NCBI GenBank assembly: GCA_977017645.1
Contig: OZ360231.1
Span: forward strand, 37,572,001 to 37,636,000
Reading direction: 5' to 3'
Length of the DNA stretch: 64,000 bases
DNA from: Torpedo marmorata
Taxonomy: Eukaryota
The position numbers and the translations under genes were made by a program. The notes beneath the pieces were generated by a model. It saw only the letters and a list, made by a program, of their open reading frames with translations, searched no databases and was not told the origin of the DNA. This document shows, one piece after another, positions 3,557 through 50,815 of this stretch; positions within the stretch are counted from its first letter, which is position 1; each line of letters opens with the position of its first letter.

Positions 3557-3955
3557 AAGATCAAGTTTGTTATCATCTCTCTTTACAAGTATAACCCAAC
3601 GAAACAGCATTCTCCGGTCCTTGGTGCAAAAACATGCAGACATACATTCAGACATAACACACATACAGACAAACGATACATATGCAGTACATTCTGTACA
3701 TACATATATATAAAATAAATAAATATTGTTTAATAAATAGTAGAGTCTCAGAGGGTTTGTATGAGCAGTTCATTCATGCGTTCAGAATTCTCACTGCCCG
3801 TTGGAAGAAGCTTTTTCTCAGCCTGATGGTCTGGCTGTGATACTCCTGTATCTCTTTCCTGACGGGAGTAGCTGAGAGATGCTGTGTGTGGAGTGGTAGG
3901 GGTCCTTACATATTTTGCAAACCCTCTTCAAACAACGATCCTGGTAGATCATGTT
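3557..3955 (-). mobile_element. Rex1/Babar LINE 3' end with UTR
   Basis: The minus strand resembles the Rex1 C-terminus (PYHSTHSISQLLPSGKRYRSI...FFQRAVRILN). Its UTR matches 5647-5785. Confidence 0.7.
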
Positions 3956-4419
3956 GGAGGGGGTGGGGGGGGGTGGGTGGGAGACCCAGTGTTGGTTTCA
4001 TATTTGAATTTAGTAAAATATTAAACTTACCAATGTGTATCATAAAAGCGTGAAAAACACAAGATTTTAAATGATCACATCATGAAATTTAAGACAGATG
4101 GCCAAAATACTGATGAAAGAGGTAATTTTTAAAGAGTATCTTTAGGAAATGGAGAGAGATTGAATGACATTGGAGGCATAATGACTAATGATGTACATTC
4201 GTGAATGATCAAGAGGAGATTTGAAGAGCAGTTTCATACAACTGTATTGGATACACTGGCCCAAAAATTCAAAGCTGTCATTTATGCCCCTTTTGAGCCT
4301 GTTCCAATTTAAATTTATCAGTACAATCTTTTATTCTCTTTATGCTGCCTAGCTTTTTTGTAAATCTTAGAAGGTAGATGACATACTTCCATTATTTGAG
4401 TCATAAAGTGATGAAGATA

Positions 4420-5950
4420 CAGAGCTATGTAACATGGAAATATGGCCTTTGGCCCAACTTGTTCATCCCACCCAAGTTGCCGTCTGAGCCATTTATCTGG
4501 ATTTGCCCCCTATTCCTCTAAACATGTCCTATCCACCTACCTGTCCAAAGTCTTTTAAAAGTTGTAATTGTACCTGTCTCCACCACCTCCTCTGGCGGTT
4601 CGTTCCATATACCCACCACCCTCTGTGTGAAAAAATAATGCCACTCACATCTCTTTTAAATCTTTCCCAGCTCATCTAAACCTCTGTCCTCTGGTTGTAG
4701 ACTCTCTATACCCTGGGGAAGGGGAACAAACTGTAACTATTCATCTTATCTATTCCCCTCATGGTTTTATATACTTCTATATGATCACCCCTCAGCGTTC
4801 TGAAAAGGTCATGGCCTATCCAGCCCCTCCTTATAATTTAAACTCTCCAGTCCTGCTAACATACATATATATAGCAAGTACATATCAGAATCAGAATCAG
4901 AATTTATTGTCATGAACAAGTCATGAAATTCGGTGTTTTGCGGCAGCATCATAGTGCAATTAACATTCATATTAACCATCTTACGACATTACTATAAAAA
5001 ATTATAAACAATAGTGAACGAAAAGTAAGGCAGTGTCTTTGGTTCATTGATTATTCAGGAATCTGATGGCAGCGGGGAAGAAGCTGTCCTTGTGCCGTTG
5101 AGTGCTCGTCTTTAGGCTCCTGTACCTTTTTCCCGATGGAAGCAGAGTGAAGAGGCATGGCCTGGGTGGTGGGGGTCTTGAGGATAGAGGCTGCTTTTTT
5201 AAGACACCGCCTCATGTAGATGTCCTTGATGGAGTGAAGTTTGGTGCCTGTGATGTCACAGGCCGAGTTAACAACCCTCTGGAGTTTACTCTTGTCCTGG
5301 GAGTTGGCGCCTCCATACCAGGCAGTGATGCAACCAGCCAGAATGCTCTCCACAGTACACCTGTAGAAGTTTACGAGAGTCTTCGGTGACATACCGAATC
5401 TCCTCAGACACCTCACAAAGTATAGCCGCTGGCGAGCCTTCTTTGTGATTGCATCAACGTGGATGCTCCAGGACAGATCCTCGGAGATGTTGACACCCAG
5501 GAATTTGAAGTTCTTGGCCCTCTCCACTACTGAGCCCTCAATGAGGACTAGGTTGTGTTCCCCTGACTTCCTCCTGAAGTCCACAATCATCTCCTTGGTT
5601 TTGCTGACGTTGAGCTCAAGGTTGTTGCCATTACACCATTCAATGAATACTTGTCCTGCATATGTATTGTTTGTCCGTATGTGTGTTACGACTGATTGTG
5701 TGTGTGCTTGCTTTGCACCGAGGACCGGAGAACACTGTTTTGTCGGTTTGTACTTGTCTAATCAGATGACATTAAACTTGACTTGAACATCCTCGTGAAT
5801 CTTTTATACACTTTTTCCAGTTTAATGACATCGTTCCTATAGCAAGGCAACCAGAACTGCACATAGTGTTCCAAGTGTTGCCTTACCCACGCCTTGTACA
5901 GCTGTGACATGATGTCCCAACTCCATTGCTCAATGCCCTGCCCGATGAAT
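4420..5950 (-). mobile_element. CR1 3' fragment interrupted at 4863-5785 by nested insertions
   Basis: CR1 sequence stops at ctgctAACAT (4862) and resumes at AACATcctcgtgaatc (5786). The downstream part encodes LEHYVQFWLPCYRNDVIKLEKV. Confidence 0.75.
4884..5646 (-). mobile_element. Rex1/Babar LINE, young 5'-truncated copy (family A)
   Basis: RT C-terminal ORF (IVDFRR...FKFLGVNISEDLSWS...KKARQRLYF) and an (atcaga)n tail. Nearly identical to 30205-31013. Confidence 0.9.
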
Positions 5951-7160
5951 GAATGATTATTACAGAGTACTGGCCCAAATTTTGGGAGTTGGTAAGCAGA
6001 CTGTTTGCCATCCATCACTTGCAGCAGAAAATTGTTTGAGCATGAAACAGCTGGCAACCCAGTGGAGCATATCTAACTGATTATTTTTCAATGTTATTTA
6101 GTTTTTATCAGCTGGGCCATGCAAAAGCTTTTGCCTCAGTCATACTCTGTTGCTGTAAGTTTTCGCAGGCCACAAATAAAATGATGTGCTCTCTCAAAAC
6201 ATCGCGACAACAAAATGTTTACCATCCAACCCTTACCCCATCGTAAGCACTGCAGCTAGGGGGAAAATAAAAATGTGGAGGAGAGATAATGTATGAGAGA
6301 GGTACAGAGCGGACTTGGTTCGACTGGAAGACCTGGCTGAGTGGGGATATGTTGAGGAACCCTATCATAATAGGAGAACGGATCATTTACTGTTAACATT
6401 TACAGGAAGGCTACACTATGAACCAACATACACTGTGACTCACTGCAACCAACAGCAGAGGACCTGCACAATTGCCAGATATATATGGGTGAAATATCCA
6501 TGGTCTGGTAGAAAATGTCACTGCTACATTTAGGAAACATTAGGTTGGGGCGGATTTTGTTTTCACGGTGTGCCCATACTTTAGATTTCTCTGTGCATGC
6601 TTAGATTTTGAAACACCCGCCCACAATATTGCTAGATGCACAAACTTATAGCGGTGCATTGAAGGAACCTGGGATAAACAGCATGTCTTCTTAGCCATTG
6701 TGGTTTATGGTTTGAGAAATAAACAAGATTGATGCGCAATGGTGAATTTAATGTCAAATCAAGTGCAGAAAGAAAGGAAGGTAAAGTAGAAGGAGATAAA
6801 TACAAAGAAAGAAATGTGAGATTTAAAAATTGATTCAAAATATGAAATAATTCCGAACTTAAAGGAATAGCACCCTACTTATAACAGTTGACTGACTGGC
6901 AATAAGTACATCACCGTGGGGATACTTAATGCTGCTCATTATTGGACTTAACACTCCGTAGCAAATTGAATTGGTAATTAGGAGGCAAATGTGGCAATTC
7001 CATGAAAATCATGCTTTTCCTGCTTTCAGAAGGTTAATGAGGGAACAAAACAAATAACCAGCCTGCTCCTGACTGCTGTTCATAATTCCCAGCCCTCACT
7101 CTATTGTGGTTCACTTTAATAACAGTGTGTATTATCCATGTGTTATTTTATCAATAATGA

Positions 7161-7422
7161 GAGGCGGCACGGTTGGCGTAGTGGTTAGCGCAACGCCTTT
7201 GCAGCACCAGCGATCGGGACCGGGGTTCGAATCCCGCGCTGTCTGTAAGGAGTTGCTACGTTCTCCCCGTGTCTGCGTGGGTTTTCCCCGGGGGCTCCGG
7301 TTTCCTCCCACCCTTCAAAATGTACCGGGGGTGTAGATTAATTGGGTGTAATTGGGCGGCACGGACTCGTGGGCCCAAAGGGCCTGTTACCGTGCTGTAT
7401 GTCTAAATTAAATTTAAATTTA
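7161..7422 (+). mobile_element. Young V-SINE, full length
   Basis: tRNA-like head (A box tggcgtagtgg, B box ggttcgaatcc), V-domain (ttctccccgtgtctgcgtgggtttt...ggtttcctccc), CR1-like 3' end and (aaattt)n tail. Confidence 0.9.
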
Positions 7423-8072
7423 AGTATGAAGTGCAGGAAGAACTGAAGTGTGATGGAGCAAGCCATTTAGGGGTTGGCTTCCCAATGAGAAATAAAGTTT
7501 ATAGAAGAGCTTTGGTGTCAAATTTTGGAAGGCAGCCAGGTGTTGCAACGCAACTCCAGAGTCTTGGGTTCGATCCTGACATTGGTTGTTGTCATTGCAG
7601 AGTGTGCACGATCTCCTCACATGTTCCTGCCAGGTTTTCTGGTTTCTCCCCAAATCCCAAAGATTTTGATGGGTAGCTTGGCTGCTGTAAATCACCCATT
7701 GTTTTGGAAAAGAGGGGAGTTAATGGCAATGTCAGAGAGAGCAAGTTGCAGGAATATAGGGAAATAAGGAGAGGGGGTATCGGGATTGATAGGATTTCTC
7801 TGCTGCACCTGATGTGCTTAACAGCCTCTTTCTGTATTTTAATTAGTAAATTAATCTTGTTTGCACAGCCAATTATAATCTTTCTTCAGGATTATCACAG
7901 ATATTGAGCTCTCCATTTCTTTAACAAGTTTTGTTTCTACCACCAACTGCAGAATCAATATTGTCAGCATTTAAACACCTCAGACCAGAATATTAATATA
8001 AAGCACATTAATTTTACTCCGCTGGGACTACAACCTTAAAAAAATGGAAAGTGGCTGAGCCTTAACATGCTA

Positions 8073-42010: not shown

Positions 42011-43044
42011 ACTCCAGTTCCACATTAGTCAGTGTAATGACATAATTGCAGATCTTTTGCAGATCCAAACGTTGTCACTTGCCTCTGTACCCTTGGTCTG
42101 CACCATTTCATCGAGCATGGTCCAGAGTGCAGTCTCTGATCCCAACACGTGTGTGAGGCTCAGACCTTCTCTCAACAGAATTGGCCAACTGAACCCGTAG
42201 AATGGCATTGGTAGTGTGAGGGACCCTGGACCTCCCTCCCTCCTAGCCCCCAGATTTAGAGACTGTCAATGTGATTGAATGTTCATGAATAATTTTAACA
42301 GGCAAATATTTCTCTTACACGCACATACACACATGTAAACACACATTAAGATGATCCAAACTACCTGAAGCAAATCAAACAAAACGTCTTCCCACCACAC
42401 AGATATCAGTCATGTCTTCCCATTGATTTTAACTGCGATTGATGCAGATTAACCCAGAAACAGAACCAGCAGCTGGATTTTCCAGCCTACAGGCTTGGAT
42501 GACTGCAGAAGTTGGAAATGCCCTGTTGTACCCCATGGGAAGTCCACTGGTGCAGAGCAGGGACTATTGGCAGCAGAGTGCAAGATGCAACTGCTATCTT
42601 AAGCTAGCACCATGCTGGACTTCAGGGCTTCTTTGAAGAAATAAGGATTAGTCTGACAGAAGTTCTGGCACCCAAGCAAACAAATCTTCCCCATTCGCTT
42701 TGAACAGCATCTGCTTGGTTTGGATTCCAGCACCAGAAATATTTGCTCCCTATCAAACCTTACCACCTCCTTCCTAATCTTCTCACTGATGGCAATTTGT
42801 TGATGCTTTAATCTCCTATACCCAATGGAGTGTAAGATTAAACACCCTCCCCTCTTAAAATGCATTAATTCTGTCACCGAATGCTCTCTAAGCATGAAAA
42901 TTTCTTTATGTGACGTTGGTAAAACTCCTGTTGGATCACATCCATTTAATTTGCAAAGTGCCACATGGTTGTCGATGACCTGAAGACCCATTGTAACCAG
43001 AAATCTGGAGTTGTTGTCAATTTGATTACAGCCGGCAGAATTCC

Positions 43045-43564
43045 TTTTTTTAAAAAATATTTTATTTAAAATTTTAAATCACGAAGTGCATAAATTAAAA
43101 TATAAAATTATCAAAATACATGTGATACATTTTCACCCCCCCCCTCCCTCCCCTCCCTAACCCTCCCACCCCCCTGACTCATACTGGCTCACCGATGCGG
43201 TGCAGTTGAGTCGCACAGTACACTGTACGGCCCAGCCGACAACCACGCCGAAAGCACGGGGAGCCCATACTAATCTACTAAAATAATAAAAAAAAAGAAA
43301 AAGATAAAGTAAGGAGAATGTCAATCTAAAAAGTACATCTATAAACTGATTTTATTGTGGAGGATAGGTTCGCCAGTCAGATCCGATGTCTAGAGATCTT
43401 CAAATCCTTAAACCAACAGCTTTTATATATGGGCTCCATATTTTCAAAAAGAAATGGTATTTATTACGTAAATTATAAGTAATTTTTTCAAGTGGTATAG
43501 CTGAACGAAGTTCTGCATGCCAACTCTCTAACCCTAAATCTACATCAGATTTCCATGTAATAGC
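43045..43564 (-). mobile_element. L1-clade LINE extreme 3' fragment
   Basis: The minus frame reads IAITWKSDVDLGLESWHAELRSAIPLEKITYNLRNKYHFFLKIWSPYI, like a fish L1 ORF2 C-terminus. Poly(A) (T run at 43045) and flanking aattcc at 43039-44 and 43565-70. Confidence 0.8.
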
Positions 43565-44719
43565 AATTCCACACAATTTTACCGAGAGAAAAAAAACTGT
43601 TAATATATATCTGTCGAGAACTGAATCGAGTATCCTTTTCCAGTTGTAACACCATTAATATACACACCTAGTCTTCAATGTAGAGGAACTACCAGCACTG
43701 GAAAAAATGAAATAGAAGCACAACTGGTCCTGTGCCTCAAGTCCACTTTCCCAGCCATTCCCCTTATCCTTCGATTCTGTTAGACTCCACTCAAAAAAAA
43801 CTTCTGCAAATACTCAATTACTGAGCATTCACACATTGTGGAAAAGAATTTTGAAGATTTGGGGATTTGAGAAGATAAATTTCCCCTCACCCCAGAACTA
43901 AATAATTCACTCCTTAACCCAAAGCCATAAAATCATTGGTTTTTTTTTTACAAACACCGAAGGATTTCATTCAACCCATTGAGTACCTTAAAGCTCTTAT
44001 CAGTCACCTTCCCCACTTCCTTCACTTTCCTCCGACAAATTTCCTGTCTTTCTAATCCCTTTTTGTTCACTTGCCATTTTTCTTTATTCTAAACCCTCTA
44101 GCTCTTAATGCTTCTGCCAATGGGAAGAGCCTCTCTTCTAGGCAGACCACATTATGATCTTTTATATCTCTATTAGTTCCCCTCCTCTGCCCTAAGGAGA
44201 ACAATGTCAGTTTTCCTAGTCCATCCACATCACTAAAGTCTTTCAATCCTGAAACTGACCTATTAAATCTCTCCTGCCTCTCCAAAGCCTTCAGGTCTTA
44301 GCTCAGTCAGGCACAGTGCTGGAACTTGTGCCCCAGTTCTAGACTCTTCAACCTGAGGAAACATAAAACATTGCAGCACAGAACAGGCTCTTTGGCCCAT
44401 GATGTTGTGCTAACCTGTATGAACCTAATACATAACTTATTTAACAGTCGCTCAGATGTTTGTCATTCCCTTCTGGAATCTTGCACATTTCAATGAAATT
44501 GCTTATTTTTCTTCTAAACTCCAGTGGGAAATAGCCAAACTTAACTTTCCTCATTAGACAAGTTTTTTTTTTTCTCCAAGCAGAACAATATCATGAGAGA
44601 GCTTGAAACATGATATAGAAGTCTGTGTCAATACAGAGGTATGGTTACCAGGAGTTGAAGTATACAGGCACCTGGATCATTTGGAAACATATTTAGCCCA
44701 TAAATTGTCAGGAAGTCAA

Positions 44720-47762: not shown

Positions 47763-48377
47763 GTAAAACACGCAAGTCTGCAGACACCGTGATTGAAGTA
47801 AAAACACAATGCTGGAGAAACTCAGCGGGTCAAACAATGTACTTTATATAGCAAAGATAAAGATACAAAACCAACGTTTTGGGCTTGAGCCCTTCATCAA
47901 GATGTGAGCAATATGTAGGCAGGCGCCCGAACAAAATGGTGGGGGGATGGGCAGGGGGAGGAGCACAGTCCCACAGGCAGAAGGCAATAGGTGGATAAGG
48001 GAGGGAGAGCACACCAGCAAACAGGGGGAGGGGGGATGGCTCTGTGAATGGAAAGGGAAGGGCGTGGAGAGCTGCAGGAAAGAAGATAGAGGGATGGAGA
48101 AAAGAGGGAGAACGGGGAGTGGTCTAGCAGAAACCGGAGAAGTCGATGATAATGCCATCTGGTTGGAGAGTGCCCAGACAGAATATTAGGTGTTGTTCCT
48201 CCAATTTACGGGTGGCCTTGGTTTGACAGTACATGAGGCCATGGACAGACATACTAGTGCCTTAGTGGGGTGCAGAATTGAAATGGTTGGCCACTGGGAG
48301 ATCCCTGTCATTGATGCGGACAGAGAGAAGGTGCTCATCGAAGCGATCTCCCAGTCTGCGACCAGTCTCTCCGATGT
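47763..48377 (-). mobile_element. Penelope-like 3' fragment (ORF end + UTR + terminal unit)
   Basis: The minus strand carries YIGETGRRLGDRFDEHL (GIY-YIG) and KLEEQHLIFCLGTLQPDGI, plus a hammerhead-like motif at 47870-47905. TSD agaagtacttggg (47750) / agaagtactttgg (48378). Confidence 0.88.
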
Positions 48378-49413
48378 AGAAGTACTTTGGAATCAGGTGC
48401 ACATGTATCCCAGCACCTGTAGGCCTTATCCCCAGCCGCACATTACCCTGACTCGCAAATATATTGCTCTTCTTTTATTTTGACTGGATTTAAGTCCCAG
48501 AGCTTGAGAGCATAGATTTAACGTTAGAGGTAAAATATTTAGAGGGGATTGGAGGAGGAAATATTTCACCCAGAGGTTGGTTGGAATCTGGAACGCACTG
48601 CCTGAGTGCATGCTTCTTGCAGGCACTCTCACAATATTCAACAAGCAACTAGACGAGCACTTGGTTCACCAGGACATAAAACGTTGTGTAAAGGGATTAG
48701 TAAAGATGGGTACGATAGTATGGACAGGGTGAGCTGAACAGCCTGTTAAGGTACATATCCCTACACCATGATTCCTGCTGCTCTCATTCACATGTCCACA
48801 TTTCAAAGTTCTAGCTGTGATGTCAAATATGTATGGCCTGCTTTTAGAGGCCACTAATATGCTCCTGGTGACCTCCACGTGTAGAAATTTGTGCACTGAA
48901 GCTTGTGATTCAAAGTCCGCTTTATGTTGTGTGCTGATCATATTTGGCAATTCATTTTATTCTCTTGATTTTCAATGCAATGCATCTTTCCAGCTTGTTC
49001 CACCTTCTCATAACCCGACATATTTTTCTGTAAGGCCATGTTATTGAACTGCTCTTTTTCTTGACGGTGCCTCTATTGTTCTAAATGGAGGTGGTGCAGT
49101 GGGCTGATCTTCTTCCTCTCTGAGATGCTCGTACGTTTAGTGCAAGCTGAGTTAACGACTCACCCCACTGTTCATCTGTTATGAGTTGGGTTATTGAAGA
49201 GAGTGTTGAGAATATCCCAATTTTCTCATCAGTGCAAGTCCATAGCTCATGGCTCCCCACAAATTGCCATGAACCTCTCAAAGAATGTATTCATTCAAGG
49301 TTCATAGACATTACTGGCAATGCCAGCAATTGTTGGCCACCACCAATATCCCTGAAAATAAGAAGGCTTGTAAGAATCAACCACATTTGTGGTCCAGGGT
49401 CACAAAGAGGCCA

Positions 49414-49616
49414 AGTAAAATCACAATGCGGGAGAAACTCAGCAGGTCAAACAGTGTACTTTATATAGCAAAGATAAAGATACATAACCAATACATACAT
49501 ACCTTGATGAAGGGCTCAAGCCCGAAACATTGGTTATGTATCTTTATCTTTGCTGGGTTTCTCCCGCATTATGATTTTACTTCAATCACAGTGTCTGCAG
49601 ACTTTCGTGTTTTACT
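49414..49616. mobile_element. Penelope-like inverted terminal structure with hammerhead motif in the loop
   Basis: Two opposing arms around TTGATGA (49504-10) ... GAAA (49524-27). Confidence 0.82.
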
Positions 49617-50279: not shown

Positions 50280-50815
50280 AGACACAATACGCAAAAGTGC
50301 TGGAGAAACTCAGCAGGACACGCAGCATCTATAGGAAATAAAGGGCAACCAACGTTTCAGGCCTGAGCCCTTCAAATTTAAATTAAATTTTAAATTTAGA
50401 CATACAGCACGGTAACAGGCCATTTCGGCCCACGAGTCCGTGCCACCCAATTTACACCCAATTAACCTACACCCTGGTATGTTTCGAACGGTGACAGGAA
50501 ACTGGAGCCCCCAAGGAAAACCCACGCAGACACAGGGAGAACGTACAAACTCCTTACAGGCAGCGCGGGATTCGAACCCCGGACCCGATCTCTGGCACTG
50601 TAAAGGCGTTGCGCTAATCGCTACGCAAACCATGAAGGGTATGAGCAAAAAACAGGCAAGCACCTGAGTAAATGGAGGAGGGGAGGGGGGAGGAGAGGAG
50701 AGGAGGGAGGAAGGAGCAGGTGGAGGAGCACAGGCTAACACATAATAGGTGGATGCAGGTGGGAGGGTAGAAGAGAAAGCAGCTGAGAAATGATGGGGGA
50801 GGGCAGCGCTGAAAA
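50280..50815 (-). mobile_element. Penelope-like terminal fragment split by a V-SINE (50374-50631, minus strand)
   Basis: gcccttca|V-SINE|tgaagggtatgag; the flanks match the terminal unit and UTR of 47763-48377. Confidence 0.8.

Follow-up and report, generated by a model that had tools for sequence, protein, structure and literature searches.

One subfamily of L1 elements in Torpedo marmorata carries in its 3' UTR a 93-nt copy of the D2 stretch of 28S rRNA, in the sense orientation, which was probably captured once by a double template switch and has probably been a neutral passenger since. The copy was encountered in the window (the whole 64,000-nt stretch of DNA that was analysed), where a first-pass annotation had described a hairpin-forming segment of foreign appearance.

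Results

The element that carries the insert lies on the minus strand of the window, is 5'-truncated and measures about 520 nt. In L1 sense it begins with the last 55 codons of ORF2 and the stop (43400..43567, minus strand; from the list of open reading frames, ending in KIWSPYIKAVGLRI before the stop), a stretch with 84-91% DNA identity to full-length relatives. This is followed by the 5' part of the 3' UTR with its pyrimidine/T-rich tract, up to the insertion site (43268..43399, minus), and by the 93-nt insert, identified by blastn and by alignment to rDNA and sense to both the L1 and the rRNA (43175..43267, minus). Two extra G residues at the 3' junction (43173..43174, minus), recognized from the comparison of filled with empty copies and from the donor context, represent either slippage in the G run or 28S nt 860-861 with one change. 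The insert abuts the 5' edge, in L1 sense, of the G-rich polypurine tract of the L1 3' UTR (43136..43172, minus), which was read from the sequence and is also present in empty-site copies. The AT-rich L1 3' end with its A-tail (43045..43135, minus) stops at a boundary (43041-43057) that is common to nearly all fetched L1 copies. A candidate 6-bp target-site duplication has its 3' copy at 43039..43044 and its 5' copy at 43565..43570 (both plus strand), 3 nt of the latter overlapping L1 homology. A junction of the window copy with an older L1 at 43568 was considered and rejected: blastn gave no match, and the end is a 5' truncation with the 6-bp duplication.

The description of a CpG-rich segment within an AT-rich L1 3' UTR was borne out, with 60% GC and 8 CpGs at 43175-43270 against 26% GC and 5 CpGs in the 387 nt of element flanks, between a C-rich tract on the plus strand (43136-43174) and an A-rich tract on the other side. 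The proposed bounds were almost exact, the foreign part being 43175-43267 and the last 3 nt belonging to the L1, and no second full copy was found in the window, as had been stated. The 5' junction of the insert (43259-43269) is complementary over 10 nt to the last ORF2 codons (43429-43438); this complement consists mostly of 28S sequence and was no better than shuffles against full-length copies. Elsewhere in the window, a hammerhead-like minimal core was matched by a regular expression at 49504-49530 (plus strand), similar cores were seen by eye near 47880-47900 and 50350-50380 (minus strand), and a broken GIY-YIG-like frame lies close to them, around 48200-48460. Such cores match the type known from Penelope-like elements (PMC6765202).

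The donor of the insert belongs to the host 28S rRNA. An rRNA expansion segment was suspected because the sense strand folds as a long GC-rich rod with G-U pairs; rDNA arrays were located via 5.8S, and two units (L213 and L216) were used first. Comparison with these by blastn gave an E value of 4e-25, and insert nt 2-93 align gap-free to L213:2217-2308 and L216:1889-1980 on the rRNA strand. Since the LSU match in L213 (1450-8759) begins at 1450, the donor is 28S nt 767-859. Identity over insert nt 2-93 is 87-92% in at least four of the five query copies (88% in the family-typical copy and 92% in the L188 copy), the window copy is identical to 28S at 77 of 93 positions, and 93 sampled copies range from 82% to 91%. 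The local score against the donor was 140, compared with about 28 for shuffles (shuffle maxima 31-36), and the remaining eight of ten strand/stretch tests stayed at shuffle level. In the alignment, similarity ends on either side where the insert does. All of 20 further rDNA units carry the donor stretch unchanged, and no other rRNA piece was found in the window or in the non-rDNA loci examined.

Exact-pattern hunts for the donor had missed the rDNA because all of them required letters in which the L1 copies have changed. With rRNA flank required, the L1-type letter at nt 76 was found in no 28S copy, and thus nothing suggests that an older state of 28S survives in the insert at this position. 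In the LSU model RF02543 the donor falls wholly in the insert state after model position 604, within the helix closed at model 420-431/about 634-645, a region that corresponds to the D2/ES7L expansion segment (3' part of D2). This position in an insert state explains why Rfam gave no match to the segment at the gathering score and, in the window, none overlapping it at E values up to 10; a second copy gave chance-level matches only. Inside the 28S gene of L213 (C30 rDNA array), positions 4254-7460 hold an open frame of 1,068 aa in which zinc-finger and RT-like motifs can be seen by eye; it is probably an intact R2 element and would explain the 7.3-kb LSU match.

An origin of the segment from the L1 itself was rejected, all 30 tests (scored plainly or with tolerance of A-to-G, T-to-C, G-to-A or C-to-T) lying within the shuffle range (best z 2.1). 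A MITE was likewise rejected, in view of arms that are only loosely complementary, no duplication, no copy outside L1 by flank-exclusion patterns, and an rRNA donor. A pre-miRNA reading was dropped after the 28S donor was found.

The distribution of the insert was determined in the genome (6.2 Gb, 4,566 contigs). A search with the 96-mer yielded 802 first-look candidates, of which 40 were scored (97-100% identical), and 30 of 30 fetched matches sit in the same L1 3' end. With the ORF2 end as query, 29 other copies were recovered, six with the insert and 23 without; in most of the latter the upstream flank leads directly into the G tract with no scar, and a few have deletions across the site. 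The older L1 upstream in L119 also has an empty site. Exact junction patterns matched genome-wide 1,482 filled and 20,761 clean empty sites, with no control matches; these counts are lower bounds obtained with filled and empty patterns of different length, and filled junctions make up about 7% of their sum. Support for the junctions rests on the assembly and on copy number. Exact patterns excluding the L1 flank gave 28 matches, all with L1 flank letters (context was read for 19 of the 28 and the others were judged from the matched letters), and no stand-alone insert was found among them. The insert is therefore not unique but a diagnostic part of one L1 subfamily, and although it belongs to the consensus of that subfamily, most copies of the family lack it. 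Among copies sampled successively along contig 1, filled copies are 3.8% apart in ORF2 (21 long copies) and empty copies 9.8% (11 long copies).

The host element, whose label as L1 rather than Tx1 is provisional and drawn from its architecture and motifs, has ORF1, an ORF2 with APE endonuclease and RT, an A-tail, a target duplication and 5' truncation. The flanks vary among copies, which argues against strict target specificity. One full-length copy, L121 (G000:C1:3265610-3272974), is of the empty-site type and has open ORF1 (504 aa) and ORF2 (1,264 aa), so that the family may still be active; its ORF2 contains the Pfam domains Exo_endo_phos and RVT_1 with a weak zf-RVT match, and a Pfam search with the 504-aa ORF1 gave no match. 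Among 30 long filled copies, two extend without a break as far as the L1 5' end and one more gets there across nested inserts; the filled carrier L224 has ORF1-bearing and RT-bearing frames. Full-length filled L1s show that an autonomous lineage carried the insert and, together with the empty sites, that the segment is a derived insertion in an autonomous subfamily.

Several loci deserve mention in their own right. In seven of them (L008, L033, L038, L049, L050, L130 and L222), L1 3' pieces cut at differing points share one upstream sequence with an LTR-like end, TGTAACA; another repeat may insert into these L1s or join them repeatedly. Filled copies in L010, L014, L023, L025 and L030 have inverted or duplicated L1 3' pieces nearby, possibly through twin priming or nested insertion. 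L1s often lie inside or directly behind other L1s (L119, L218, L222, L229, L236, L239), which suggests that AT-rich L1 sequence is favoured as a target.

Between the commonest L1 letter and 28S there are 12 differing columns, all of them transitions, nine being C>T or G>A and six falling at 28S CpGs. In six of the 12 every sampled copy has the L1 letter, which for column 1 is a consequence of the search pattern. The remaining six still show the 28S letter in a minority of copies, in nested fashion at nt 32, 64, 67 and 72, which fits a series of master elements drifting from the donor. The window copy departs from the commonest family letters at four of 95 columns (insert nt 61, 70, 83 and 86). 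Decay was computed on 35 of 40 copies, five with indels having been dropped. Outside CpGs it amounts to 47/2415 (1.9%) in the insert and 158/8799 (1.8%) in the flank, and at CpGs to 8.9% and 9.4%, respectively. Such neutral decay is the behaviour of dead copies and says nothing on selection in the master elements.

At several ORF2 sites the donor-like copies have the alleles of the empty-site majority. It is only suggested that this sublineage is the oldest, as neither age test was significant (p 0.47 for distance and 0.16 for the load of private mutations). Only about two ORF2 columns set the main and donor-like filled copies apart from all others. Filled copies do not form one clean clade and their ORF2 alleles are mosaic; on the tree, two changes of the filled/empty label are needed with 32 rows and three with 66 rows. 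L083 and L160, in which a filled 3' UTR is joined to ORF2 alleles of an empty-site lineage, are on their sequence recombinant L1 copies. Because the filled copies are not one clade, recombination or later loss must be added to a single gain, and one gain with recombination between lineages is the simplest reading, the alternative including later loss. ADAR editing of the hairpin was considered for the A>G changes, which reach 3.95% in the insert and 0.66% in the flank (98 copies). It was rejected in favour of ancestry because 22 of the 38 changes, at nt 72, give the 28S letter and are linked to a sublineage, and three further ones, at nt 67, give the 28S letter as well.

The folding claimed by the annotation was confirmed in part. 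The named stems can form, and the GACTCA/TGAGTC hairpin belongs to the lowest-energy fold predicted for the 131-nt plus strand and has its mirror image in that of the minus strand; the bulged 15-bp hairpin forms in the window copy, but is partly an accident of private changes there. The strand that had been folded is moreover antisense to both the L1 RNA and the rRNA. For the 96-mer, z was -1.48 on the plus strand (19 of 200 shuffles as good) and -2.25 on the minus strand (6 of 200), and with flanks -1.67 and -0.80, respectively. The family-typical copy gave -1.27 (25 of 200) and the 28S donor -0.79. On these predictions the folding is not significant, being little better than chance on both strands.

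Discussion

In the course of events that we favour, ORF2p would copy L1 RNA from the A-tail and, during target-primed reverse transcription, pause past the G-rich tract. Prompted by this pause, it would jump to the abundant 28S rRNA, or a fragment thereof, copy 93 nt, and return to the L1 RNA at the base of departure, 1 nt being shared. The chimeric new copy would have been a competent master element, whose descendants would lose the rRNA letters step by step, chiefly through CpG-type transitions, and recombine with sister L1 lineages. The insert has the same orientation as the L1, as is described for template switching in the accessible text of Law and Burns, and its source is the mature rRNA. 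Capture of a structured RNA by L1 template switching, one of the origins initially proposed, is thus supported by the 28S donor, the sense orientation and the clean empty site. We infer the switch itself; the donor, its orientation, the empty site, the copy numbers, the full-length carriers and the decay at the flank rate were read from the assembly.

It is also possible, though distinctly less probable, that the capture occurred at the DNA level, a break in a master L1 beside the G tract having been patched with rDNA or 28S cDNA, or the piece having arrived in the UTR as a tail-less retrocopy, after which the element would have continued to transpose. One event only would be needed, and G-rich tracts are break-prone. 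The junctions, with 1 nt shared at the 5' side and 2 extra G at the 3' side, are compatible with end-joining; they cannot prove an RNA-level event, and sense orientation is a 1-in-2 outcome under DNA-level capture. Dispersed 28S retrocopies are common in mammals, according to the accessible part of PMC4994717. However, when filled copies are compared with empty ones, every L1 base is retained at the insert, and neither a target duplication nor an A-tail accompanies it. The piece is mature-rRNA sequence and lies in sense, the orientation of 83% of the human 28S/L1 chimeras, events which the available text of Law and Burns ascribes to ligation or template switching.

Once captured by the proposed double switch, the insert has most likely been without function. 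Folded in isolation, the sense insert is predicted to form a single rod without branches between nt 3 and nt 92, most of its pairs having a probability above 0.9, and the same rod is predicted for the 28S donor alone. Only 18 of 370 D2 windows of the insert length are end-paired unbranched rods, and the ends of the insert match the rod ends. This structure, of roughly 36 bp, might have been kept as an aid to the L1 RNA, by binding ribosome-associated factors, by stabilizing the RNA or by competing with the G-quadruplex tract, and the spread of the subfamily to at least 1,482 copies could be cited in its favour. We nevertheless regard such an aid as very unlikely, because the predicted rod is unstable in either larger context: with the L1 flanks it yields to pairing with the G tract, and in the 28S context only its apical seven pairs persist. 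In addition, z is weak for both insert and donor, the recurrent variants that most stabilize the rod (nt 17 and 72) are 28S letters absent from the main lineage, filled junctions are a small minority of the two counts taken together, and L121, a copy with both ORFs intact, belongs to the empty type. There is only a slim chance that an autonomous vertebrate L1 recruited the ES7L hairpin into its 3' UTR and put it to use, for instance to keep its RNA close to ribosomes or to factors bound to them, or to adjust the neighbouring G-quadruplex; if it did, an rRNA structure would have been recruited as a cis element of a LINE.

The first-pass annotation had also raised an undescribed small RNA or ribozyme module and a very recent or exogenous insert, and these can be practically discounted, as the donor is 28S rRNA from the own rDNA, which refutes them as to origin, and the copies are about 1.9% diverged outside CpGs. 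A hammerhead has CUGAnGA and GAAA boxes with a UH site between stems III and I, and the HDV fold, a nested double pseudoknot, requires P4 and a catalytic C in J4/2. By eye, the plus strand comes close to a hammerhead core and the minus strand to a nested pairing of HDV type. However, neither strand of the segment has a CUGAnGA box, only 2 nt, with no C, were seen on inspection between the candidate P1.1 and P2 strands, and Rfam matched neither fold. Copies do not pile up at the insert, only two having been found that start at or just before it, whereas cleavage might give more. One 21-nt core pattern had no match in viral and prokaryote contigs.

The insert traces the source of an L1 3' UTR block, which is rarely possible, and indicates that an RNA can be captured into the interior of an L1 whose descendants inherit it and still jump, whereas the described chimeras are mostly single 5' additions. 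Filled and empty UTRs offer a natural pair for the effect on retrotransposition of a hairpin beside a G tract. In practical terms, over a thousand dispersed D2 copies of 82-91% identity might be picked up by probes for rRNA depletion or rDNA FISH, and would presumably escape Rfam.

Indels in the L1 3' UTR mark subfamilies, and mosaic or recombinant L1 lineages exist. The source of subfamily-diagnostic UTR blocks is usually unknown or another repeat, whereas the present block is traceable to rRNA. The mostly open-access literature searched yielded no case of an active L1 subfamily that had inherited an rRNA piece in its interior, although a consensus with the present block may already sit unremarked in Repbase; PMC4494074, PMC6765202 and PMC5850279, in their accessible parts, provide general background.

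The closest known cases are the 18 human 28S/L1 chimeras of Law and Burns, which in the accessible text of that work are defined as additions to the L1 5' end (83% sense), have 28S parts of 50-482 nt that often start near 28S nt 3636, and are single events, related U6 chimeras being said not to self-propagate. As in those chimeras, for which that text invokes template switching or RNA ligation, a partial 28S (93 nt here) is joined to an L1 in the sense orientation. In contrast, the D2 piece is internal, with L1 on both sides, and amplified to at least 1,482 copies. The cellular RNA is in L1 orientation, as expected of a template-switch chimera, but it does not form the 5' end; because L1 sequence flanks it on either side and extends as far as the L1 5' end, we do not file the element as a classical bipartite chimera.

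Tripartite chimeric retrogenes arising by double template switches at single loci are described by Gogvadze et al. 2007 (PMC2104539). As far as the accessible part of that paper goes, they resemble the present case in two switches per round of LINE reverse transcription and in co-oriented parts, and differ in that they join three different RNAs, whereas here the order is L1-28S-L1, with a return to the same base and an active founder. SINE28, in the available portion of Longo et al. 2015 (PMC4994717), derives from the 28S 3' end, has its own A-rich tail and target duplications, is non-autonomous and occupies 27 human loci; a review of rDNA inside transposons (PMC10946416) names it, in its accessible part, as the 28S example. 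Both are 28S-derived sequences spread through the L1 machinery, but the piece described here comes from D2, has no tail and no duplication, and no independent copies of it were found. In toto, 28S/L1 chimeras and double switches are already known, and it is as an internal and amplified rRNA piece that the insert differs from the described RNA/L1 chimeras.
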